A stretch of 11,770 nt of DNA from the UHGV virus genome UHGV-0394577; one strand, 5' to 3'. This document shows, in pieces, positions 1,567 through 11,770 of this stretch (the stretch's first letter is position 1; each line of letters starts with the position of its first letter). Made by a program: the position numbers and the translations under genes. This DNA is from a virus. The notes under the pieces were generated by a model. The model ran no database searches. It was not told the origin of the DNA and saw only the letters and a list, made by a program, of their open reading frames with translations.

Positions 1567-1773
1567 ATGGCTGAAGAGAAAAAAGGCGGTGTTTCGGTGT
1601 ACATAAGCCCCGAAATCGTGGAGGTGCTCAAGCAGCGCCACAAAAAAAACTATGAGGCTGGCGTTGCGGCTGGACTGGATCCGCTGATGACGCCGGAGCC
1701 GTCGATAGGTTCACTTGTGCGATCTTATTTACTTGCGGCGCTTGGGATGCACAAAAATTATGGGGGCGAATAA
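1567..1773 (+). CDS. hypothetical protein (68 aa) immediately upstream of the major capsid gene
   Basis: ATG with AGAGGA SD; stop TAA overlaps the capsid ATG (TAATG), suggesting translational coupling. Confidence 0.5.
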   Translation: MAEEKKGGVSVYISPEIVEVLKQRHKKNYEAGVAAGLDPLMTPEPSIGSLVRSYLLAALGMHKNYGGE

Positions 1774-2828
1774 TGGCAGTCAAAGCAATAGCACTTAACA
1801 CACACCAGCTTTTCGCGTACCTGAATCGCGAGGATATTGCGGAATTTAAATTTAGTCCGCTGTTTACCGCGCTGTTTTTCCCGAACGTGGCGACATTCAA
1901 CACGCAGGACATCATGTTAGATAACCTGGATATTGAAGAAGTCACTATGTCGGCGTTTTGTTCGCCTATGGTTGGCAGCCAGGTTCAGCGCGATAAAGGG
2001 TACGAAACCAGCATTATCCGCCCTGGCTACATGAAGCCAAAACACGAAATCGATCCATTAAAAACAATAATGCGCATGGCTGGAGAAGATCCGGCACAGC
2101 TTAACGATCCTACCTACCGCCGTATGCGCCTGATTACTGGCAACATGCGCCGCCAGATAAACGCCATTAAAGCGCGTGTTGAATGGCTGGCGGTGAATGC
2201 GGTAACGACCGGAAAAAACATCATTGAGGGCGAAGGCATAGAACGCTATGAAATCGACTGGAAGATACCGGAAAAAAACATCATAGAGCAGGCCAAAGGC
2301 CGTAAATGGTCCGAGCAGGATAAAGACATACACGACCCAATCTATGACATTGAGCTATACGCAGATCAGGCAGGTTGCCCCGCCAACGTCATGATTATGG
2401 GCGTTGATGTATGGCGCATGTTACGCAGCTTTAAAAAATTCCGTGAGCTGTACGATCTTTCCCGTGGTTCAGAATCCGCCGCAGAGCTGGCATGTAAAAA
2501 CCTGGGCGAAGTGGTGAGCTTTAAAGGCTATCTTGGTGATCTGGCCCTTATCGTCTATTCCGGCAAATACACTGACAGCGACGGCACAGAAAAATATTTC
2601 CTTGAGCCTGATTTGCTGGTCCTGGGCAACACCAACAATAAAGGGCTGGTGGCCTATGGTGCGATTATGGAACAGGAAGCGGTAAGAACGGGCGCAACGC
2701 AAAACATGTTTTACCCGAAAAACTGGATTGAAGACGGCGATCCGGCGATTGAGTACGTGCAGACACACAGCGCACCGCAGCCGGTACCGGCAGATATTCG
2801 CAAATTTGTTACCGTCAAAATTGGTTAA
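1773..2828 (+). CDS. major capsid protein, phage lambda gpE-like
   Basis: 351 aa; colinear similarity to lambda E recalled from memory (FKFSPLFTALFF, PGYMKPKHEI, DPTYRRMRL, WRMLRSFK, RGSESAAELACKNLGEVVSFKGYLGDLALIVYSGKY, LVLGNTNNKGL, YPKNWIEDGDPA, C-terminal FVTVKIG). Confidence 0.92.
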   Translation: MAVKAIALNTHQLFAYLNREDIAEFKFSPLFTALFFPNVATFNTQDIMLDNLDIEEVTMSAFCSPMVGSQVQRDKGYETSIIRPGYMKPKHEIDPLKTIMRMAGEDPAQLNDPTYRRMRLITGNMRRQINAIKARVEWLAVNAVTTGKNIIEGEGIERYEIDWKIPEKNIIEQAKGRKWSEQDKDIHDPIYDIELYADQAGCPANVMIMGVDVWRMLRSFKKFRELYDLSRGSESAAELACKNLGEVVSFKGYLGDLALIVYSGKYTDSDGTEKYFLEPDLLVLGNTNNKGLVAYGAIMEQEAVRTGATQNMFYPKNWIEDGDPAIEYVQTHSAPQPVPADIRKFVTVKIG

Positions 2829-2839
2829 CGGGGGATTCT

Positions 2840-3175
2840 ATGAACACTCCATACATTGAGTTATTTGCAGGCAGTCAGCAGGTATCAACGACGCTGGTAC
2901 ATTTTGCCGCTGATGCTGGCGTTATTCAGGAATTTACCCCGCTGATGCTGGTGGACAATGGCGAGTTTAAGCCGTGGGATGGTCAGGAATCTGGCAAGGC
3001 TGTTTATCTGACCTCGTACCCCGTGGACACGTCGACGCAGAAATCAGCACAGTGCTACAAGACGGGGATATTCAATATTGCCGCCGTTAACTGGCCTGAG
3101 AGCGTCGACACCGATGCGAAAAAATGCGCCGCCTTTGCGGGTTCTGGCGTATCCGTTCAGCCGCTGGCCCGATAA
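2840..3175 (+). CDS. head decoration protein, phage lambda gpD-like
   Basis: 111 aa (lambda D is about 110 aa); shared motifs TPLML, WDG, YKTGIF, WPE, AFAGSG; SD GGGGGAT. Gene order here is E then D, the reverse of lambda. Confidence 0.8.
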   Translation: MNTPYIELFAGSQQVSTTLVHFAADAGVIQEFTPLMLVDNGEFKPWDGQESGKAVYLTSYPVDTSTQKSAQCYKTGIFNIAAVNWPESVDTDAKKCAAFAGSGVSVQPLAR

Positions 3176-3187
3176 GCAGGGGGAACG

Positions 3188-3601
3188 ATGGCAACGAATG
3201 AAAGCATCATGACGCTACCGCTGGCGAGTAAATTTAAAGCCGAAGCGCGTGCAATGGCTGACAGAGGTTTATCAACCTATGAGGCCGTATATCAACTAAA
3301 CAAACTGGAAGAGCAGGACAAGCCGCGCGCTGATGCGATTATGGCGCTTCATGAGCATAAAGACTATCAGCCGCTGTTGCGTGCAATGGCAAACGTGCCA
3401 TGTATTAGCGTCGATAATGCTCGTGAAATCCTGAACATGACCATAGACCAGGAGCGCCCAAAGGTTGCGCCGGAGCTTACCGCAGCCTTTGAAAACTTTA
3501 TGGACATGCACAGCCCGCAAGCCGTATCAGCAGGCATGGCATACGATGGAAGAAACCCTGGCGATGACGGCGACATCGATCGCATACTGAAAACCATCTG
3601 A
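3188..3601 (+). CDS. hypothetical protein (137 aa), in the position occupied by FI in lambda
   Basis: Good SD (AGGGGGAA); acidic C-terminus; followed directly by a terminator. No recognisable sequence similarity, positional inference only. Confidence 0.5.
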   Translation: MATNESIMTLPLASKFKAEARAMADRGLSTYEAVYQLNKLEEQDKPRADAIMALHEHKDYQPLLRAMANVPCISVDNAREILNMTIDQERPKVAPELTAAFENFMDMHSPQAVSAGMAYDGRNPGDDGDIDRILKTI

Positions 3602-3606
3602 GACAG

Positions 3607-3631
3607 GCCGGAGAAATCCGGCTTTTTTTTT
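3607..3631 (+). terminator. rho-independent terminator (hairpin GCCGGAGAAATCCGGC + T9)
   Basis: Third copy of the same hairpin, identical to the copy at 972-987; the T-run runs into the cosQ-like sequence. Confidence 0.6.
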
Positions 3632-3698
3632 ACGGGTCCTTTCCGGCATATGGACCCGTTACGGGGCGGCGACCTCGCGCGTTTTCGCTATTTATGAG
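3631..3698 (+). other. lambda-type cos site (cos1): cosQ-like TACGGGTCCTTTCCGG, cosN GGGCGGCGACCT at 3664-3675, start of cosB
   Basis: TTTACGGGTCCTTTCCGG...GTTACGGGGCGGCGACCTCGCG.GTTTTCGCTATTTATGA matches the joined right and left ends of phage lambda DNA as recalled from memory; lies upstream of the Nu1-like gene as in lambda. Confidence 0.75.
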
Positions 3699-3808
3699 CC
3701 TTTTCGGGTTGGTGGTGGTGGTTTTGTTGTTCGCTCTATCTCCATGAATAAAAAGGGAAAGATAACACCAACACACCAACCTGAAGCATTAATTAAGTGG
3801 GGGTATTG

Positions 3809-4351
3809 ATGAAATCGCACCTGATGAACAAAAAAACTATGGCGCAAAGCTGCCGCGTAAGCGCCACTGCGTTCGATAAGTGGGGAGTAACTCCCGTTGA
3901 GCGTAAAGGCCGTGAGGCGTTTTATGATGTTGCTAGCGTGATAGACAATAGGGTTAACAATGCAATTAACCAGCTTACAAACGACAAAGGCGAGATTGAT
4001 GATGATGAACTTTTACGCGTAAGAATCAGATTAATGACGGCCCAGGCGGAAGCGCAGGAACTTAAAAACGAGCGCGAACGCGGCGAGGTGATTGATACAG
4101 AGTTTTGCATGTACGCGCTTTCAAAACTGGCAAGTCAGATTTCTTCAATCATGGACAGCCTCCCGCTTACTATGCAAAGGAACTTCCCACAGATGCCCCC
4201 CGCTATGCTGCATGGGCTTAAGAGGGAAGTAGTTAAAGCCTGTAATGCCAGTGCCAGAGTTGCCGACAACCTCCCACAGATACTGGCTGATTACTTGAAA
4301 GAAACAACCGGAAACGTACCGGAAAAGTTGCTACAGAAGAAAGGCGAGTAA
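3809..4351 (+). CDS. terminase small subunit, lambda Nu1-like
   Basis: Track ORF 3797..4351 begins at GTG; ATG 3809 follows a GGGGG SD. The middle and C-terminal regions resemble lambda Nu1 (RLMTAQAEAQELKNERERGEVIDTEFCMYALSKLASQISSIMDSLPLTMQRNFPQ; LKREVVKACNASA), while the N-terminal putative DNA-binding region is divergent. Confidence 0.85.
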   Translation: MKSHLMNKKTMAQSCRVSATAFDKWGVTPVERKGREAFYDVASVIDNRVNNAINQLTNDKGEIDDDELLRVRIRLMTAQAEAQELKNERERGEVIDTEFCMYALSKLASQISSIMDSLPLTMQRNFPQMPPAMLHGLKREVVKACNASARVADNLPQILADYLKETTGNVPEKLLQKKGE

Positions 4352-4472: not shown

Positions 4473-4571
4473 AGAAGAAGAACGGATCTGACTTTTGCCG
4501 GAAAATTTTCATAAACAGATAAAATCCGCGAGGTCGCCGCCCCGTAACGGGCCATAATTCCAGGAAGGACC
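4473..4571 (-). other. second lambda-type cos site in inverted orientation (cos2): cosQ-like, cosN (4531-4542, minus strand), R3-like CCGTTCTTCTTC
   Basis: Reverse complement reads CGGGTCCTTCC...CCGTTACGGGGCGGCGACCTCGCGGATTTT...TTTATGAAAATTTTCCGG...CCGTTCTTCTTC, matching lambda cos further into cosB than cos1 does. Confidence 0.7.
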
Positions 4572-4606
4572 CGACGACACCAGACTATCAGAACGATGGG
4601 GGCACA

Positions 4607-4888
4607 ATGACAGAAGCCGAACTACTGGGATTAATACGCCGCGTCGCCGGAATCAGCCAGCAGGCTGACGAACAGACCGCGCAGCCGGACAGCGTGACCG
4701 CCGAAAATTACGCGCGTGTGGTTGCTGAGGTGATGCGCCGTGATGGTATCCAGCTTAATGGCGTTGATATGCGCAACATACGGATACGCGTTCTTGAAAT
4801 GCTGGCCTACCGTCGCCGCGTGCAGACGTACAGGGAAAAAGCAAAAATTACGTACCACTGGAAGAAGCCGGAACGACTGCGTACGTAA
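4607..4888 (+). CDS. hypothetical protein (93 aa)
   Basis: ATG with GATGGGGG SD; basic C-terminus; stop overlaps the palindrome CGTACGTAATACGTACG. Confidence 0.5.
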   Translation: MTEAELLGLIRRVAGISQQADEQTAQPDSVTAENYARVVAEVMRRDGIQLNGVDMRNIRIRVLEMLAYRRRVQTYREKAKITYHWKKPERLRT

Positions 4889-5236: not shown

Positions 5237-5365
5237 TTAACCTGGCAAAAATTCCGGTAGGTGGTGATCCCCATATCGGGGAACATCCACCAGCTTCGTT
5301 TTTATAAATTAAACACCTGGGAAAATCAGACTCTGAATTGTGCATTTTTTCAGCAAATCATTTTA

Positions 5366-5385
5366 GTTATACGTTTGGTTATACG
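5366..5385. repeat. two direct GTTATACG repeats (12-bp spacing)
   Basis: GTTATACG at 5366-5373 and 5378-5385. Confidence 0.45.
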
Positions 5386-5468
5386 GTTTAAAAGTTGAAT
5401 CAGGAACATTCTTTTAAATCATTCAGTTACATGATCAATTAAACTACTCTCGTGCCGACCAAATTGCC

Positions 5469-5494
5469 CACCGGATATCACCGGAAAGCACCGA
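5469..5494. repeat. three direct CACCGGA repeats at 10-bp phasing
   Basis: CACCGGATATCACCGGAAAGCACCGA; the same dimer recurs at 5553-5569 and 7383-7399. Confidence 0.45.
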
Positions 5495-5509
5495 ATAAGA
5501 CAGGGATAA

Positions 5510-5540
5510 CCCGCTAATCACTTGATTGGCGGGTTTTTTT
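5510..5540 (+). terminator. rho-independent terminator (CCCGCTAATC / GATTGGCGGG stem + T7)
   Basis: 10-bp stem (one G-U pair), 4-nt loop, 7 T; sits between the two CACCGGA repeat sets upstream of int. Confidence 0.5.
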
Positions 5541-5552
5541 ATGGTTTTTAGT

Positions 5553-5569
5553 CACCGGATATCACCGGA
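5553..5569. repeat. CACCGGATATCACCGGA direct repeat (second copy)
   Basis: Identical 17-mer to 5469-5485. Confidence 0.45.
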
Positions 5570-5596
5570 TTTATAAGCTATCAGCCGGATTTTTTA

Positions 5597-5644
5597 GTTA
5601 TACGCTTAGTTATACGGGCTGGCGTATAACTAAAGCCGTATAAC
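5597..5644. promoter_or_regulatory. symmetric array of GTTATACG motifs (two direct then two inverted) just upstream of int
   Basis: GTTATACG at 5597 and 5609, CGTATAAC at 5623 and 5637, forming an imperfect palindrome of about 50 bp centred near 5620, 35-85 bp upstream of the int ATG. Candidate integrase arm-type or regulator binding sites. Confidence 0.45.
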
Positions 5645-5679
5645 TAAAACCCTGTTTTTTCGTGTGGAATCATAGACAT

Positions 5680-6921
5680 ATGGCGAGAAAAACAACCCAA
5701 TTAACCACAGTGCAGATCAAAGCAGCCAGGCCAGCGGAAAAGGAGTACACCCTACAGGACGGCGGGGGGCTTTTTCTCCTGGTCAAACCGTCCGGATCAA
5801 AACTCTGGAGATTTTCCTACTACCGACCATCGGACAAAAAAAGAATATTGCTGAGTTTTGGATCGCTTGAAGATGTTTCCCTGGCTGATGCCAGAAAACG
5901 CCGTAGCGAGTACAGGACGTTAATCAGTGCCGGAACTGACCCGCAGGACCACGAGAGGCAAAAAAGAGAGACAGAGGCCCGAAGACAAGGGAACACGTTC
6001 GAAAATGTGGCGGCGGCATGGTACCAGGTGAAAATCAGCCAGAATCTGGCCCCCAACACGATTAAAGACATCTGGAGATCGCTGGAAAAATATGTATTCC
6101 CGTTCATCGGTAACACGCCAATAGACACCCTGACCGCTCGCAGGTTTGTTGAGGTGCTTACCCCCATCAAGGAACGTGGCAACCTGGAAACACTCAAACG
6201 GGTTTTACAGCGAGTCAATGAAGTAATGGATTACGCCGCCAACAGTGGGCTGATCGATACCAATCCGGCTATGAATGTGCGTAAGGCGTTCCCCTCCCCT
6301 GTAAAAAAACATATGCCAACAATCCGCCCCGAGCAGTTGCCGGAGCTTATGCAGGCTTTATCAGTATCGGCAACAGAACGGCAGACCAGATTACTGATCG
6401 AATGGCAGTTACTGACCGTAACCCGTCCCGCCGAAGCGTCATCAACTCGGTGGGATGAAATCGACATGGACGCGAAGCGATGGACGATACCCGCCGGACG
6501 CATGAAGATGAGGCGTGATCACGTTATCCCGCTTTGTAGTCAGGCTATGGCGGTACTGGAGGCTATGAAACCAATCAGCCATCACCGCGATTACGTTTTC
6601 CCGAGCCTGAAAGACCCACGGCAGCCTATGAACAGCCAGACCGCAAACGCAGCATTGCGGCGGATGGGGTTTGGCGGGGTTCTGGTTTCTCACGGTATGC
6701 GCGCCATATTCAGCACCGCAGCGAACGAAGAAGGATTTGAGCCGGACGTAATAGAGGCCGCACTAGCCCACGTGGACACCAACGAAGTGAGACGGGCATA
6801 CAACCGGAGCAACTACATAGAAAAACGCATCGTGCTTATGCGCTGGTGGGGCGAATTTGTCGAGGCGGCGGCAACGGGCGTGACCCTTGCCAGTGGTAAA
6901 AGGGGTATTCGGGCCGTGTAG
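5680..6921 (+). CDS. int: tyrosine recombinase / integrase, P4-family
   Basis: Track ORF 5662..6921 begins at GTG; ATG at 5680 gives the N-terminus MARKTTQLTTVQIKAARPAEKEYTLQDGGGLFLLVKPSGSKLWRFSYY typical of P4-like integrases; C-terminal catalytic region with R...HVIPL...HGMR..F...A and a Y in RRAYNRSNY. Confidence 0.92.
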   Translation: MARKTTQLTTVQIKAARPAEKEYTLQDGGGLFLLVKPSGSKLWRFSYYRPSDKKRILLSFGSLEDVSLADARKRRSEYRTLISAGTDPQDHERQKRETEARRQGNTFENVAAAWYQVKISQNLAPNTIKDIWRSLEKYVFPFIGNTPIDTLTARRFVEVLTPIKERGNLETLKRVLQRVNEVMDYAANSGLIDTNPAMNVRKAFPSPVKKHMPTIRPEQLPELMQALSVSATERQTRLLIEWQLLTVTRPAEASSTRWDEIDMDAKRWTIPAGRMKMRRDHVIPLCSQAMAVLEAMKPISHHRDYVFPSLKDPRQPMNSQTANAALRRMGFGGVLVSHGMRAIFSTAANEEGFEPDVIEAALAHVDTNEVRRAYNRSNYIEKRIVLMRWWGEFVEAAATGVTLASGKRGIRAV

Positions 6922-7250: not shown

Positions 7251-7262
7251 CAATCCTGAAAG

Positions 7263-7285
7263 CGGCAGAAATGCCGCTTTTTTTA
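7263..7285 (+). terminator. rho-independent terminator (GCGGCA-GAAA-TGCCGC + T7)
   Basis: Perfect 6-bp stem, GAAA loop and T-run 12 nt after the stop at 7250. Confidence 0.6.
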
Positions 7286-7382: not shown

Positions 7383-7399
7383 CACCGGAATACACCGGA
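7383..7399. repeat. CACCGGAATACACCGGA direct repeat (third copy of the CACCGGA dimer)
   Basis: Lies 19 bp upstream of the alpA start codon. Confidence 0.45.
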
Positions 7400-7417: not shown

Positions 7418-7624
7418 ATGGAAGCAATCAAAAAAGTCATCTTTCGCCAGGAAGTAAAAAAACTTATCCACATCAAGGCAGACAGCACGCTGCAAAGCAT
7501 GATCAACGCCGGAGAATTCCCGCAGGGTTTTCGCGTTGGTTTACGCCGTCGAGGATGGTATGAGGATGACGTAATCGCCTGGATGAAAGAACGCGAACAG
7601 GAAGCACGCGGAACGGCTGCTTAA
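7418..7624 (+). CDS. alpA: AlpA/Vis-family phage regulatory protein (excisionase-like HTH)
   Basis: 68 aa; STLQSMINAGEFPQGFRVGLRRRGWYEDDVIAWMKER fits the AlpA-family pattern (FP, G.R..GW.E.EV..W); sits downstream of int as in P4-like and PICI elements. Confidence 0.75.
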   Translation: MEAIKKVIFRQEVKKLIHIKADSTLQSMINAGEFPQGFRVGLRRRGWYEDDVIAWMKEREQEARGTAA

Positions 7625-8192: not shown

Positions 8193-8235
8193 GTGGTCAC
8201 CTATTGAATTAGCCTTTCTATTGTTAGGTGACCAC
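8193..8235. promoter_or_regulatory. operator-like inverted repeat GTGGTCACCT-n23-AGGTGACCAC
   Basis: Perfect 10-bp inverted repeat; each half contains the palindromic GGTCACC/GGTGACC core; located at the 5' end of the RHH gene and upstream of the Ash/Icd operon. Confidence 0.4.
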
Positions 8236-8326
8236 CTTAACACAAGAGCACTTAAAAAAGCAAAGCCCCGCAAGTGTCATTACCACTCGCAGGGCTTCTA
8301 ACCAACAACGTAAACTAGGAGCCGTT

Positions 8327-8524
8327 ATGGTTGCCGTAAATCATATAACACACCTTGTACACACACAAACGGCCTTTGTGTGGCGTTTTCTGGCCCTGAG
8401 TGCCGGAGAATCTCAAATCATCCACGTAACCGCCTGGACGGAACGCGAAGCGCGTAGCCGTTGCCCGTCAGGTTGTGTTGCTGTATTTGCCGCTCGTATT
8501 CGTCAGGGGTCACATCATGCGTAA
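8327..8524 (+). CDS. Ash/Icd-like small protein (P4-type), short paralog
   Basis: 65 aa from ATG 8327 (SD TAGGAG), internal to track ORF 8228..8524. TAFVWRFLALS...VTAWTEREARSRCP...VFAARIRQG is paralogous to the C-terminus of the next ORF and resembles Ash/Icd-like proteins as recalled from memory. Confidence 0.5.
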   Translation: MVAVNHITHLVHTQTAFVWRFLALSAGESQIIHVTAWTEREARSRCPSGCVAVFAARIRQGSHHA

Positions 8525-8984
8525 AAACCGCTTGCAAAAAATTATAACGGGGCTGTATGCTTCCCCCGTCGCCCACATGGCGACCGGGTTTGACAGCCTG
8601 AATACTGTAGCGGACAGCCGCTTACATTCCGATATGCGGTTTTTTTGTGTCCGTAAACCTACCCATACCCGCATTATGGCGGGGCGTAACGGGGGAGCCT
8701 TTGCGCTCGCTGGTTCCTACAGTACCAGTCTGTCAACCCTGTTACGTCTCGCCACCATGTTTGACAGCGTAGTAGCGAGACTCCTTAAAATTACTGTAGG
8801 AGCCTTTCACATGGCTGTATCCGCACGCCCTTACTTTGTCTGGCGCTTTATGCAGTGCCACCACAGCAGCATTGATGTATTCACCGTTACCGCAGCCACT
8901 GAACGCGAAGCACGCGCCCAGCTGCCGCACGCACATCTGATTTTTGTCGCCCGTATTCGTCAGGGGAAAACCTATGCACAATAA
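8517..8984 (+). CDS. Ash-family-like protein, long paralog
   Basis: 155 aa from ATG 8517 (SD AGGGGT); start overlaps the previous stop (ATGCGTAA); C-terminus YFVWRFMQC...VTAATEREARAQLP...IFVARIRQG is homologous to the upstream ORF. Confidence 0.5.
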   Translation: MRKNRLQKIITGLYASPVAHMATGFDSLNTVADSRLHSDMRFFCVRKPTHTRIMAGRNGGAFALAGSYSTSLSTLLRLATMFDSVVARLLKITVGAFHMAVSARPYFVWRFMQCHHSSIDVFTVTAATEREARAQLPHAHLIFVARIRQGKTYAQ

Positions 8985-9426: not shown

Positions 9427-9726
9427 ATGAAACTTAAATATCCTGGCTTAACTGCCAGCGGCAAAACTCGCACTAAATTCATGTGCGGGGATATTTACCG
9501 CGATAAGTACGGCGGCACGGTAATGATTAAGAGCGTGGAGGAACGGCGCGTAACTTACCGTCGTGAAGGCTACCAATATGATTGCGTGATGCCTGTTTAT
9601 CAGTTCGAACGTGATTTTTCTCTTGTGCAGGCCGTACCGCGTAACGTGCCCACCAGCAGGGAGAAAGCACGCGCCAATATTCAGGAAATAAGAAAGATGT
9701 TGAACGTATTCAGGGGTAAAAAATGA
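9427..9726 (+). CDS. hypothetical protein (99 aa)
   Basis: ATG 9427 with GGAG 10 nt upstream; stop overlaps the primase start (ATGA). Confidence 0.5.
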   Translation: MKLKYPGLTASGKTRTKFMCGDIYRDKYGGTVMIKSVEERRVTYRREGYQYDCVMPVYQFERDFSLVQAVPRNVPTSREKARANIQEIRKMLNVFRGKK

Positions 9727-11477
9727 AACTTGCACCGAACGTAAAACAGCAGTCACGCGGCATAAAACACAAAGGAACAGAAGTCATTATTTTTGCGGGT
9801 AGTGATGCCTGGTCACACGCTAAACAATGGCAGGAACATGACGCGCGTATGGCCGGAGATAATGAGCCTCCTGTGTGGCTTGGGGATCAGCAGTTATCCG
9901 AACTGGATAAGCTGCAAATTGTGCCGGAAGGCCGAAAATCAGTACGCATATTCAGGGCCGGACATCTTGAACCTGTAATGATAAAGGCGATTGGTCAGAA
10001 GCTGGCGGCGGCAGGTGTACAGGATGCAAATTTTTACCCTGAGGGAATGCACGTTCAGGAGGTGGAGAACTGGCGCGAATATCTGGCCCGTGAGCGCCAG
10101 AATCTTTCTGAAGGTCTGTTCGTTGAGCTTCCGGTAAAGCAAAAGGCGCAACTTTCGCAGATGGCGGACAGTGAACGCGCTCAGCTGCTTTCCGATCGCT
10201 TTGATGGCGTTTGCGTACATCCTGAAAGTGAAATCGTTCACGTATGGCGCGGCGGGGTATGGTGTCCGGTCAGCACAATGGAACTTAGCCGCGAAATGGT
10301 GGCGATCTATTCAGAGCACAGGGCCACTTTCAGCAAGCGCGTAATCAATAACGCCGTTGAAGCGTTAAAAGTTATTGCCGAACCAATGGGCGAGCCGTCC
10401 GGCGATTTGTTGCCGTTCGCCAATGGTGCGCTTGACCTGAAAACGGGGGAATTTTCCCCGCACACGCCGGAGAACTGGATCACCACGCACAACGGTATTG
10501 AGTACACGCCACCAGCACCAGGGGAGAACATCCGCGATAACGCGCCAAATTTTCATAAATGGCTTGAGCACGCAGCCGGAAAAGACCCGCGCAAGATGAT
10601 GCGTATATGTGCCGCGCTGTACATGATTATGGCGAACCGGTACGACTGGCAGATGTTTATTGAGGCCACCGGAGACGGCGGAAGCGGTAAAAGTACATTC
10701 ACGCATATAGCCAGCCTTCTGGCAGGGAAACAGAACACGGTAAGCGCTGAAATGACCTCACTTGATGATGCTGGTGGACGTGCGCAGGTTGTCGGGAGTC
10801 GTCTTATCGTCCTGGCTGACCAGCCGAAATATACAGGCGAAGGAACGGGCATCAAGAAAATCACGGGCGGCGACCCCGTGGAAATTAACCCGAAATATGA
10901 AAAGCGTTTCACGGCGGTAATCAGGGCGGTGGTGCTGACGACCAACAACAACCCGATGATATTCACCGAACGGGCCGGAGGCGTGGCACGTCGTCGGGTT
11001 ATTTTTCGCTTTGACAATATCGTTAGCGAGGCAGAAAAGGACAAGGATTTGCCGGAGAAGGTCGCGGCTGAAATCCCTGTGATTATCCGCCGATTACTGG
11101 CGAACTTTGCCGACCCTGAAAAGGCCCGGGCTTTACTCCTGGAACAGCGCGACGGTGATGAAGCACTGGCAATAAAGCAACAGACGGATCCGGTTATTGA
11201 GTTTTGCCAGTTCCTGAATTTTCTGGAGGAAGCGCGCGGCCTGATGATGGGTGGCGGTGGCGATTCAGTGAAGTACACGACCAGGAACAGCCTTTACCGC
11301 GTCTATCTGGCGTTTATGGCGTACGCAGGCAGGAGCAAACCGCTAAACGTAAATGACTTTGGCAAGGCTATGAAGCCCGCTGCAAAAGTTTACGGACATG
11401 AATATATTACGCGGAAAGTTAAGGGAGTAACGCAGACTAACGCAATAACAACAGACGATTGTGACGCGTTTTTATAA
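9723..11477 (+). CDS. P4-alpha-like primase/helicase replication protein (SF3 helicase domain)
   Basis: 584 aa; Walker A GDGGSGKST, Walker B-like LIVLAD, later VVLTTNN motif; architecture typical of P4-family/PICI primase-helicase; iteron origin immediately downstream. Confidence 0.88.
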   Translation: MKLAPNVKQQSRGIKHKGTEVIIFAGSDAWSHAKQWQEHDARMAGDNEPPVWLGDQQLSELDKLQIVPEGRKSVRIFRAGHLEPVMIKAIGQKLAAAGVQDANFYPEGMHVQEVENWREYLARERQNLSEGLFVELPVKQKAQLSQMADSERAQLLSDRFDGVCVHPESEIVHVWRGGVWCPVSTMELSREMVAIYSEHRATFSKRVINNAVEALKVIAEPMGEPSGDLLPFANGALDLKTGEFSPHTPENWITTHNGIEYTPPAPGENIRDNAPNFHKWLEHAAGKDPRKMMRICAALYMIMANRYDWQMFIEATGDGGSGKSTFTHIASLLAGKQNTVSAEMTSLDDAGGRAQVVGSRLIVLADQPKYTGEGTGIKKITGGDPVEINPKYEKRFTAVIRAVVLTTNNNPMIFTERAGGVARRRVIFRFDNIVSEAEKDKDLPEKVAAEIPVIIRRLLANFADPEKARALLLEQRDGDEALAIKQQTDPVIEFCQFLNFLEEARGLMMGGGGDSVKYTTRNSLYRVYLAFMAYAGRSKPLNVNDFGKAMKPAAKVYGHEYITRKVKGVTQTNAITTDDCDAFL

Positions 11478-11491
11478 TTTTTTGCAATGGC

Positions 11492-11718
11492 TGTCTACCC
11501 TGTCTACCTGAGTAAAGGAAAATACATTTAATTCAGTATATTAAGTTAGGTAGATAGCCTTTTTTCCCTTGTCTACCTGCTGTCTACCCTCTCTACCTGA
11601 TTTTACCTGAACCAGAAAGGGAGGTAGATACGGGTAGATAGTGAATAAAAGCACTCTACCCCGCTGAAAGCCGCGCCATTACTGGAATGGGGGCCAGCAA
11701 GGTAGATAAGGTAGACAA
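11492..11718. repeat. replication origin iterons (TGTCTACC / GGTAGATA, about 11 copies in both orientations)
   Basis: Direct copies at 11492, 11501, 11571, 11581 and 11590 (degenerate TCTCTACC); inverted copies at 11549, 11623, 11633, 11701 and 11711; 9-10 bp phasing within clusters; similar to the P4 ori/crr type I iteron TGTTCACC as recalled from memory. Confidence 0.7.
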
Positions 11719-11770
11719 GGGGAGGCACAACTCAAAACTTTTTAAACGAGGGGGTAAAAATAAATATGCA

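Follow-up and report, generated by a model that had tools for sequence, protein, structure and literature searches.

The window, i.e. the whole stretch of DNA analysed here (virus genome UHGV-0394577, 11,770 bp), contains adjacent genes for proteins resembling the coat protein gpE and the head decoration protein gpD of phage lambda. An earlier note on this DNA had taken them for the capsid shell genes of a satellite without portal, protease, scaffold or large terminase, and had suggested that they could build a capsid smaller than that of the helper. The locus thus raises two questions: what kind of element carries these genes, and what would a shell set of this kind be for?

Extent and identity of the element

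Base 11770 of the window runs straight into base 1 in a chromosomal relative. The window is therefore a circular permutation of the entire element and, as a complete circular satellite, hides no genes beyond its ends. Portal, protease and terL genes immediately outside the window, which the earlier note had considered as a sign of a complete prophage head module, do not come into question, because the 11,770-bp circle is the whole element. The chromosomal relative has tRNA-Pro/yejM on one side and, on the other, a truncated autotransporter pseudogene with narP behind it. The features outside the capsid and packaging regions are:

271-681, + strand, SSB (Pfam SSB, E = 1e-15), directly upstream of the capsid operon region
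689-964, + strand, PerC-family regulator (Pfam PerC, E = 5.6e-42), also directly upstream of that region
4607-4888, + strand, orf93, the conserved last gene of the element (phrog_1561; CFT073 homologue 87 % identical)
5439-5463, no strand, attP core, where the alignments across the left and the right junction overlap; it matches the tRNA-Pro 3′ end
5662-6921, + strand, tyrosine integrase (Pfam Phage_integrase, E = 1.1e-28, with Arm-DNA-bind_3)
7418-7624, + strand, AlpA-like regulator (69 % identical to a protein with a precomputed Pfam AlpA match)
9723-11477, + strand, primase/replicase (D5_N, DUF5906 and Pox_D5 domains)

The integrase gene is the first gene past the attachment site in the integrated relative; it lies at one end of the element and is co-oriented with most genes. 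A tRNA scan of the window found none, the att core merely overlapping the end of the host tRNA-Pro. The AlpA-like protein, encoded downstream of int, is 28 % identical to the AlpA of EcCICFT073 (E = 3e-6), and a Pfam scan of this protein gave no match at E ≤ 0.001. Iterons at 11490-11511 and 11579-11600 (direct repeat D12), just past the primase gene, probably mark the origin (11490-11600).

Searches of all window ORFs against Pfam and PHROG profiles matched none of them to a portal, a large terminase or the S49 protease domain, and tblastn with the A and B proteins of lambda and the helper and with the S49 domain had no hit in the window. The sole tblastn match to the helper C protein was its Nu3-type C-terminal region, which is shared with the 137-aa ORF discussed below. 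The ORFs and profile searches describe an element in the size range of ~10-15 kb with a discrete attachment site and without lysis, tail, portal or TerL genes, as is characteristic of phage-inducible chromosomal islands (PICIs). The window comprises a complete PICI of 11,770 bp that belongs to the classical E. coli cos type, for which EcCICFT073 (Fillol-Salom 2018 ISME J; 2019 Mol Cell) is the model. It is for EcCICFT073 that induction, replication and high-frequency transfer have been shown to depend on a helper phage.

The two islands have a common order: int, alpA, primase, SSB, PerC, orf68, E, D, orf137, cos1, packaging gene, cos2 and orf93. They are similar in size (~11-12 kb), both have an inverted pair of cos sites, and the E, D and orf137 proteins share 92-95 % identity with c1499-c1501. 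They differ in the integrase (24 % identical), the attachment site of the window element being tRNA-Pro, and in the gene between the cos sites, which encodes the 144-aa RppA in EcCICFT073 and a full-length Nu1-type TerS (180-184 aa) in the window element. Mosaicism is strong in this family. Among the late genes of Gram-negative PICIs those for capsid proteins occur most often, being present in 21 of 29 reference islands, and the E/D feature was already known from the EcCICFT073 family, so that its observation here rediscovers a published feature.

The capsid operon and its conservation

The capsid genes and the signals around them are:

1454-1539, + strand, putative promoter and operator of the capsid operon (dyads and TATAAT; function inferred from sequence)
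1567-1773, + strand, orf68, a small protein homologous to c1498; its stop codon overlaps the start codon of E (ATGA)
1773-2828, + strand, major capsid protein of the lambda gpE family (PF03864), c1499 homologue
2840-3175, + strand, head decoration (cement) protein of the lambda gpD/phage 21 SHP family (PF02924), c1500 homologue
3188-3601, + strand, orf137, stand-alone Nu3-type scaffold homologue by its sequence, related to c1501; two Nu3 repeats and a C-terminal FENFMDMHSP box
3605-3631, + strand, intrinsic terminator closing the capsid operon (member of hairpin family D1)

The earlier assignment of the 351-aa and 111-aa proteins to the lambda families was borne out, both scoring above the gathering cutoffs. 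The coat protein gave a full-length match to Pfam Phage_cap_E (E = 2.8e-48; profile positions 15-328 of 329; 165 bits, cutoff 22.9), and the smaller protein matched Pfam HDPD (E = 3.8e-18; 66 bits, cutoff 29.1). In local alignments with the proteins of lambda and of the CFT073 helper prophage, E was 43-46 % and D 38-41 % identical, with 43 % for lambda gpE and 38 % for lambda gpD. PDB sequence searches matched the coat protein to the lambda gpE structure 7VI9 (E = 5e-81) and to c1499 of EcCICFT073 (94.3 % identity, E = 1e-226), for which a crystal structure exists (3BQW). The decoration protein matched 1TD0, a head decoration protein (E = 7.5e-14), and was 95.5 % identical to c1500.

As the earlier note had said, the pair is flanked by ORFs of 68 aa and 137 aa. 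The 68-aa protein possibly has a ribbon-helix-helix fold and represents the other of two allele types compared with the CFT073 orf68 (68 % identity). The 137-aa ORF had been placed in the position of lambda FI; it has no similarity to lambda or helper FI (scores 25-27), and its sequence is of the Nu3 type instead. A Nu3-type protein was defined by an IMxxxEAxGRExLAxxLAxxPGMTVExAxxIL-type repeat and a C-terminal FExFMxxHSP box, and both were found in orf137; the same repeat is present in lambda Nu3. The protein matches the C-terminal end of phrog_53 (E = 1.3e-10), shares 39 % identity with residues 416-493 of gpC from the helper prophage and 92 % with c1501, and its profile matches a 195-aa protein that has three repeats of the Nu3 type (E = 1.4e-8 in a search of 1.8 billion proteins). 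The NCBI name of this family, 'phage head-tail connector protein', has no NCBIfam or Pfam support, and the sequence points to Nu3. The AlphaFold model of orf137 is all-helical and floppy (pLDDT 51) and was unusable for a fold search, and PDB sequence searches with orf137, orf93 and the TerS-like protein found nothing significant. The identification of orf137 as a stand-alone scaffold homologue is an addition of the present analysis. It modifies two suggestions of the earlier note: portal, protease and TerL are indeed not found in the window, but a scaffold homologue is present, and of the flanking ORFs proposed as capsid factors the 137-aa one is related to capsid assembly, only not by way of FI.

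All three gene families of the lambda/phage 21 head module (C/Nu3, D or SHP, and E) are thus represented. The order E, D, Nu3-like is reversed, as noted earlier for E and D, since lambda runs C/Nu3-D-E. The scaffold homologue is a separate 137-aa gene in an element without an S49 domain, and not a nested in-frame product of the protease gene C. Portal, TerL, W, FI and FII of the phage module are absent from the window element. Upstream of orf68, a dyad of the form ATTGCA-N6-TGCAAT at 1483-1500 precedes a perfect TATAAT (1504-1509), and another palindrome lies at 1508-1539 (inverted repeats I9 and I16). The block is kept in CFT073, in TUM13770 and in a lineage with 62 % coat identity. With this conserved putative promoter region and the terminator, orf68-E-D-orf137 would be a transcriptionally separate late operon.

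E was intact in all 82 elements and D in 80, the remaining two being cut by contig ends. The dN/dS was 0.13 for E (70 distinct alleles) and 0.10 for D (43 alleles), with no stops in either set, compared to 0.27 for orf137, 0.03 for orf68, 0.13 for primase and 0.17 for RppA, the loci having been chosen by best protein match, which biases these values toward intact copies. E and D are under purifying selection, among the sampled relatives as strong as that on the primase, and are not pseudogenes, a possibility raised in the earlier note. The scaffold homologue is not obligatory, since, of 76 relatives that have retained E and D, 6 have either lost it by deletion or carry a frameshift in it.

The capsid module was found in 598 of 5426 complete E. 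coli genomes (~11 %), and 592 of the 598 copies cover at least 80 % of it. A search for a phage donor found no coat protein more than 48 % identical among 50,697 phage records, and coat homologues at 67, 62 and 56 % identity were all within PICIs and in the E-then-D order. The arrangement is kept down to 56 % protein identity, also in Salmonella, E and D diverge jointly across the satellite lineages, and the third gene holds the Nu3 architecture even at 29 % identity. In these comparisons the satellite coat proteins form a clade of their own, which we regard as a satellite-only lineage of capsid genes.

Packaging and experiments on the model island

The packaging region follows directly on the operon:

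3633-3708, + strand, cos1, lambda-like cosQ and cosN (cosN 3664-3675), then a cosB region unlike that of lambda; points at the TerS-like gene
3809-4351, + strand, full-length lambda Nu1-type small terminase, TerS (Pfam Phage_Nu1, E = 2.2e-22)
4498-4573, − strand, cos2, a second, inverted cosQ and cosN (cosN 4531-4542; inverted repeat I1)

The functional cos1 of EcCICFT073 occupies the same position (PMC6739421), and that island has a matching inverted cos1/cos2 pair. In the window element cos2 retains lambda-like sequences at the place of the lambda cosB start. The TerS ORF was listed from a GTG at 3797, the ATG at 3809 being the likely start; the protein is 37 % identical to lambda Nu1 over residues 3-180/181. 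It has no similarity to RppA and matched no PDB sequence, the Rpp entries included. The Nu1-type TerS occupies the slot that RppA has in EcCICFT073, Rpp being a protein that retargets the helper TerS. The same TerS was present in 40 of the 82 family members examined, and TerS-encoding E. coli PICIs have been described (PMC6092414).

The published experiments bear directly on the proposed smaller capsid and were performed with EcCICFT073, an Rpp-type island, the window island being of the TerS type. EcCICFT073 DNA is packaged at phage size, as concatemers, with no monomer band and no size redirection of the Ccm, CpmB or Sid type (PMC6092414, PMC6739421): with lambda the DNA had phage size, and with the natural helper a band of PICI monomers was not seen (PMC6092414). 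Deletion of c1499 or c1500 changed neither transfer nor the interference with lambda (PMC6092414), and lysates of an engineered island in which c1498-c1501 had been replaced still transduced (PMC10460865); a further source on phage-size packaging and the dispensability of the module is PMC10111431. We suspected that a c1501::tetA marker had confounded the null phenotypes. The primers of Table S6 place tetA right behind the c1501 stop codon, and c1501 is therefore intact in the marked island. No later functional study of c1499-c1501 and no link between PICIs and Nu3 turned up in literature searches. The premise that a cos satellite of 12-15 kb cannot fill a lambda-size head was wrong, as EcCICFT073, with a 94 % identical coat protein, is packaged as phage-sized concatemers; the smaller capsid built from the satellite coat protein is contradicted for this type element by the size of its DNA and by the deletions without effect.

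Other satellites with coat genes differ from the window element in ways that matter here. The capsid-forming PICIs (EcCIEDL933; Alqurainy et al.), with which the earlier note had drawn the parallel, have the same int-alpA-primase backbone and likewise encode a small terminase and a coat protein of the HK97 fold. In addition they have genes for portal, protease, head-tail adaptors, HNH and TerL, and they produce small capsids themselves. The window element has only the coat, cement, scaffold-like and TerS genes of this set and is not a capsid-forming PICI, because the defining genes are absent; its model relative uses full-size heads. SaPIbov5 is likewise a cos-packaged satellite with a homologue of the helper major capsid protein (Ccm). 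With Ccm, assembly is diverted to small capsids and the helper is blocked, whereas no size redirection and no role in interference were found for c1499, and the window coat gene, unlike that for Ccm, is accompanied by cement and scaffold homologues. The helper-embedded PICIs of the 11capE type (PMC10111431) have the E-then-D pair and a Nu1-like gene; they differ in being integrated inside helper late genes, in a coat lineage 55 % identical, and in a third gene that is AlpA-like and not Nu3-like.

Possible roles of the module

The reading that we tentatively prefer, with a confidence a little short of an even chance, is that the module is an auxiliary shell set, redundant with that of the helper, which builds or joins lambda-size heads. 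Upon induction of a lambdoid helper the island would make its own coat, cement and scaffold subunits, and these would assemble into, or co-assemble with, helper-initiated lambda-size (T=7) heads using the helper portal and protease. The heads would be filled from cos1 with a concatemer of ~4 genomes (4 × 11.77 = 47.1 kb, 97 % of lambda), the island's own TerS recruiting the helper TerL. Assembly into normal-size helper-initiated heads would make the module a redundant shell supply and not a size-reduction device, paying off only if the helper capsid proteins were limiting, interrupted, incompatible or targeted. That a cement protein and a scaffold homologue are both kept beside the coat gene argues for a structural role. 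Co-assembly with helper coat proteins at ~45 % identity is uncertain, and the benefit of a redundant module is speculative.

It is unlikely, although conceivable, that E, D and the Nu3-like protein instead poison the assembly of capsids by the helper or by competing lambdoid phages, or act as decoys for capsid-sensing host defences. Helper capsid assembly is commonly targeted by satellites (PMC6893505, PMC10945586), and the Nu3-like protein, which resembles the helper protease/scaffold in its repeat and C-terminal box, could bind to the same site in competition with it. However, interference with lambda was not relieved by deleting c1499 or c1500. Rpp alone was identified as blocking plaque formation of lambda and phi80 (PMC9026076), and it is the characterised mechanism of the packaging block (PMC6739421). 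The cement protein binds expanded shells only and so has no obvious poisoning role. A PADLOC scan of the module proteins and the neighbouring unknown ORFs gave no match to a defence system.

The idea of the earlier note, in which the satellite coat protein and the flanking ORFs determine a smaller (T=3 or T=4) capsid on the helper portal that takes one genome and excludes the helper, now seems improbable. Coat, cement and scaffold-like genes are in principle enough to specify a shell, the coat proteins form a clade separate from all those of phages, and by simple volume scaling a T=3 lambda-type shell would hold ~13-14 kb, near the 11.8 kb of the element. Precedents exist in Ccm of SaPIbov5 and in PmCI172, both giving rise to small capsids; PmCI172 has a coat homologue, though the responsible gene was not identified there (PMC6092414). 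Against this stand the experiments described above, in which EcCICFT073, with all module genes intact, gave phage-sized DNA with lambda and no monomer band with its natural helper, transfer and interference survived the loss of c1499 or c1500, and transducing lysates persisted after replacement of c1498-c1501.

Equally improbable is that the coat gene is a back-up copy, replacing the interrupted helper gene in relatives integrated within helper E, B, C or A, and that the module was carried along by recombination between lineages into islands at chromosomal sites, including that of the window. PICIs embedded in a helper E gene do bring their own coat gene (PMC10111431; locus L089), three loci (L012, L048 and L051) out of the 80 retrieved lie within helper head genes, and the strong mosaicism of the family also speaks for it. 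Yet the window island and most relatives are at tRNA or other chromosomal sites with E and D intact and under strong purifying selection, and the embedded type has a different coat lineage. That the module is a functionless, slowly decaying remnant of an ancestral prophage head module, as the null phenotypes and the six relatives with a broken or missing orf137 might suggest, is hardly credible, being largely refuted by the selection data (dN/dS equal to that of primase, uninterrupted alleles), and the near-complete genome copies, the arrangement kept in distant lineages and in Salmonella and the conserved promoter also speak against it.

The claim that a satellite carries its own E and D homologues without portal, protease and TerL is supported, and the Nu3-type third gene turns 'two odd capsid genes' into what may be a coherent shell-assembly module. 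Beside the auxiliary shell set preferred above, there is a small chance that the orf68-E-D-Nu3-like operon is a self-sufficient shell unit which, with some natural helpers, forms satellite-specific heads on a stolen portal. Such heads could have a smaller T number and contain a single 11.8-kb genome, cut at cos1 by the helper TerL together with the TerS of the island. In that case the TerS-type islands of the EcCICFT073 family would count as 'half capsid-forming' PICIs, an evolutionary intermediate between the classical and the capsid-forming ones. If the coat, cement and scaffold-like set of a satellite that rides in helper heads did serve in shell assembly, the boundary between classical and capsid-forming satellites would become blurred.

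Capsid genes and their satellite lineage

The capsid module consists of four co-oriented genes in the ORF list:

1567-1773, orf68, 68 aa
1773-2828, E, lambda gpE-type coat gene, 351 aa
2840-3175, D, lambda gpD-type decoration (cement) gene, 111 aa
3188-3601, orf137, 137 aa

In Pfam the 351-aa protein matched Phage_cap_E over almost the entire profile (E=2.8e-48) and the 111-aa protein matched HDPD, the lambda gpD family (E=3.8e-18). PHROGs concurred (major head protein, 1e-106; head decoration, 4e-28), and by direct alignment E and D are 43 and 38 % identical to lambda gpE and gpD, respectively. Searches that included Pfam and PHROGs gave no match of any window ORF to portal proteins, large terminases or the S49 protease domain. 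The earlier note had described lambda E and D homologs in reversed order with these other head genes missing, and this is borne out: the order in lambda is C/Nu3, D, E, whereas in the window E precedes D. A 463-aa protein (P0030) contains Phage_cap_E and HDPD together, also in E-then-D order; it is apparently an E-D fusion, but an overlooked stop codon or a faulty assembly would explain it equally well.

The E/D capsid feature is correct but already known. The CFT073 chromosome carries the model phage-inducible chromosomal island (PICI) EcCICFT073, the layout of which equals that of the window, and we place the window in this family with very high confidence. Identities to the CFT073 counterparts are 94.3 % for E (c1499), 95.5 % for D (c1500), 92 % for orf137 (c1501), 68 % for orf68 (c1498) and 87 % for orf93, a 93-aa ORF. 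The window E protein matched 3BQW, a crystal structure titled 'putative capsid protein of prophage', with E=1e-226. Fillol-Salom et al. 2018 (PMC6092414) assigned c1499 to the capsid and c1500 to head decoration, found lambda interference and transfer unchanged by single deletion of either, detected only phage-sized packaged DNA, stated that c1499 showed no findable phenotype, and also mentioned E. coli PICIs encoding TerS. Phage-sized capsids for EcCICFT073 packaging were restated in 2019 (PMC6739421). In a 2023 survey the major capsid gene, present in 21 of 29 reference islands, was the commonest late gene of Gram-negative PICIs, and transfer does not require it (PMC10111431). When melA took the place of c1498-c1501 in an engineered island, a phi80 delta-cosN lysogen still yielded transducing lysates (PMC10460865). 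The marker 'c1501::tetA' was considered as a disruption of the module and rejected, as the published primers put tetA directly 3' of the c1501 stop codon.

Among 50,697 phage records no phage coat protein was more than 48 % identical to E, and the homologs that share 67 % (Salmonella), 62 % and 56 % identity with it are without exception PICI-borne, in E-then-D order. In an identity matrix satellite coat proteins shared 50-94 % identity mutually and 38-48 % with phage coat proteins, and the lambda/N15 and phage 21/Gifsy clades shared 59-62 %. The divergence of D runs parallel to that of E. These satellite-only identities and the parallel divergence mark the E-D pair as an old lineage, specific to satellites, rather than one captured recently.

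The family is strongly mosaic: across the related loci L006-L085 integrase identity is 97 % or about 24 %, and primase identity 97, 90, 65 or 47 %. The capsid module stays 92-99 % identical while these modules shuffle; orf68 occurs as two allele types, about 68 % identical to each other. Four loci (L012, L048, L051 and L089) sit within head genes of helper prophages (portal, E), an arrangement already published for helper-embedded PICIs.

Scaffold-like gene, transcription and selection

From its position, the 137-aa ORF had been taken as an analogue of lambda FI. Alignment gave no similarity between orf137 and FI; the protein is instead made up of two Nu3-type repeats, one of which is present in lambda Nu3, and a C-terminal 'FENFMDMHSP' box. 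It matches the C-terminal end of the lambdoid protease/scaffold PHROG (1.3e-10), and its residues 49-131 are 39 % identical to residues 416-493 of gpC from the CFT073 helper prophage. A profile search of 1.8 billion representatives returned a 195-aa protein with three Nu3-type repeats (E=1.4e-8), and the third gene of the 62 %-coat lineage (141 aa, 29 % identical) is built in the same way. Judged by these similarities, orf137 is a stand-alone Nu3-type scaffold homolog and not an FI analogue. In the helper-embedded locus L089 an AlpA-like gene takes the third position of the module, in contrast to the Nu3-like gene of the window. In 6 of 76 informative loci orf137 is deleted (L030, L055, L065, L069) or frameshifted (L040, L067), with E and D intact. 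With orf137 lost or broken in ~8 % of such relatives, the coat-cement pair is therefore maintained independently of it.

Terminators bracket the four genes (1334-1404 upstream, 3605-3631 downstream), and the region upstream of the module, with a perfect TATAAT and two dyads, is kept in CFT073 and in the 62 %-coat lineage. The sequence thus predicts that orf68-E-D-orf137 is a separately controlled transcription unit of its own. At 1483-1539 the dyad ATTGCA-N6-TGCAAT lies just 5' of the TATAAT and a second palindrome follows; this conserved block is probably an operator, for which the adjacent PerC-like protein and orf68 are candidate regulators. A near-identical terminator hairpin (GCCGGAGAAATCCGGC plus a T-run) occurs four times, at 966-993, 1329-1356, 3601-3628 and 7256-7283, and these hairpins are predicted to split the island into separate transcription units.

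Full-length E was present in all 82 loci of a sample (80 related IMG/VR loci, CFT073 and the window) that was picked by protein match and is biased toward intact coat genes; D was complete in 80, and in the other two the contig ends within the gene. No stops occurred in 70 E and 43 D alleles, which argues against pseudogenes, and dN/dS was 0.13 for E, 0.10 for D, 0.27 for orf137 and 0.03 for orf68 within its allele type, with 0.13 for primase and 0.17 for RppA, the EcCICFT073 packaging protein, as comparators. The module was found in 598 of 5426 complete E. coli genomes, with at least 80 % of it covered in 592.

Whole element and packaging end

Megablast found collinear relatives of the window in complete E. 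coli genomes. In strain TUM13770 the order is int, HTH (alpA-like), icd-like genes, DUF4222, primase, SSB, 68-aa ORF, capsid, decoration, 137-aa ORF, terS and 93-aa ORF; the element lies between tRNA-Pro/yejM and a truncated autotransporter pseudogene, which is followed by narP. Aligned to this locus, window base 11770 runs straight into base 1; the alignments across the two junctions, left and right, have 5439-5463 in common, and this stretch is the attP core in tRNA-Pro. It follows that the window represents a single complete 11,770-bp satellite in circularly permuted form. Nothing lies outside it, so that portal, protease and terL cannot be hidden there, as the remnant of a complete prophage head module would have had them.

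Repeats flanking the attP core (5361-5617 and 7383-7399; TTTTAGTTATACG... in two copies, CACCGGATATCACCGGA in four) look like putative integrase arm-type or regulator binding sites. Iterons of 22 bp (11490-11511 and 11579-11600) lie immediately 3' of the primase gene, where PICI replication origins are described. At 8228-8984 neighbouring paralogous ORFs of 98 and 169 aa have repeated C-terminal segments in common (direct repeats D7, D11); in a relative the annotation of the counterpart gives two genes for Icd-like cell-division inhibitors, one partial.

The gene 3' of the module encodes a full-length Nu1-type small terminase (Pfam 2.2e-22), which shares 37 % identity with lambda Nu1 across residues 3-180 of 181 and had no match in a PDB sequence search. 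In EcCICFT073 this slot holds the 144-aa RppA, to which the window TerS is unrelated. Two sites flank the TerS gene as a 76-nt inverted repeat:

3633-3708, + strand, cos1, lambda-like cosQ/cosN, cosN at 3664
4498-4573, - strand, cos2, lambda-like cosQ/cosN, inverted, cosN at 4542

Their existence is already published, and CFT073 likewise has an inverted cosQ/cosN pair, around rppA. As such a pair surrounds both TerS and rppA, what lies between the cos flanks is an exchangeable cassette; TerS occurs in 40 and RppA in 18 of the 82 family members examined. Lambda-like sequences at the start-of-cosB position (TTTATGAAAATTTTCCGG ... CCGTTCTTCTTC) are retained by cos2 and not by cos1. Four genome copies amount to 47.1 kb, 97 % of lambda length, and of whole numbers only four falls within the lambda packaging limits of roughly 78-105 % of genome length. 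Three copies were suggested in one paper.

Function of the module

Others have shown on a close relative that the module is dispensable in the laboratory and that packaging is phage-length. In the window the coat, cement and scaffold-like genes are intact, under selection and separately controlled, and portal, protease and TerL are absent. We know of no role for a cement protein besides stabilising expanded, DNA-filled shells, and Nu3-type proteins have a role in procapsid assembly. Because both genes are retained beside the coat gene, we infer that the coat protein of the satellite does become part of capsids; a poison role or a relic would agree less well with this retention. The module would then be a redundant shell supply, assembling on the helper's portal at normal size, a reading we hold with moderate to low confidence.

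A back-up role is plausible for the helper-embedded relatives, but leaves the selection in islands at chromosomal sites unexplained. An interference or decoy role does not account for the cement gene and is at odds with the deletion data. The earlier note proposed that the self-encoded coat builds a smaller capsid, with the flanking ORFs as size or adaptor factors; such redirection is contradicted for EcCICFT073 by its exclusively phage-sized packaging (PMC6092414, PMC6739421), and for this TerS-type island or with further helpers it has a low probability. That interpretation is thus only partly supported: the satellite's own E and D without portal, protease and TerL stand, and the small capsid and the FI analogue are not supported. 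Pure decay is refuted by the selection data.

The useful residue of the analysis is a sharper description of a widespread, conserved module of coat, cement and stand-alone Nu3-like genes with its own predicted promoter.
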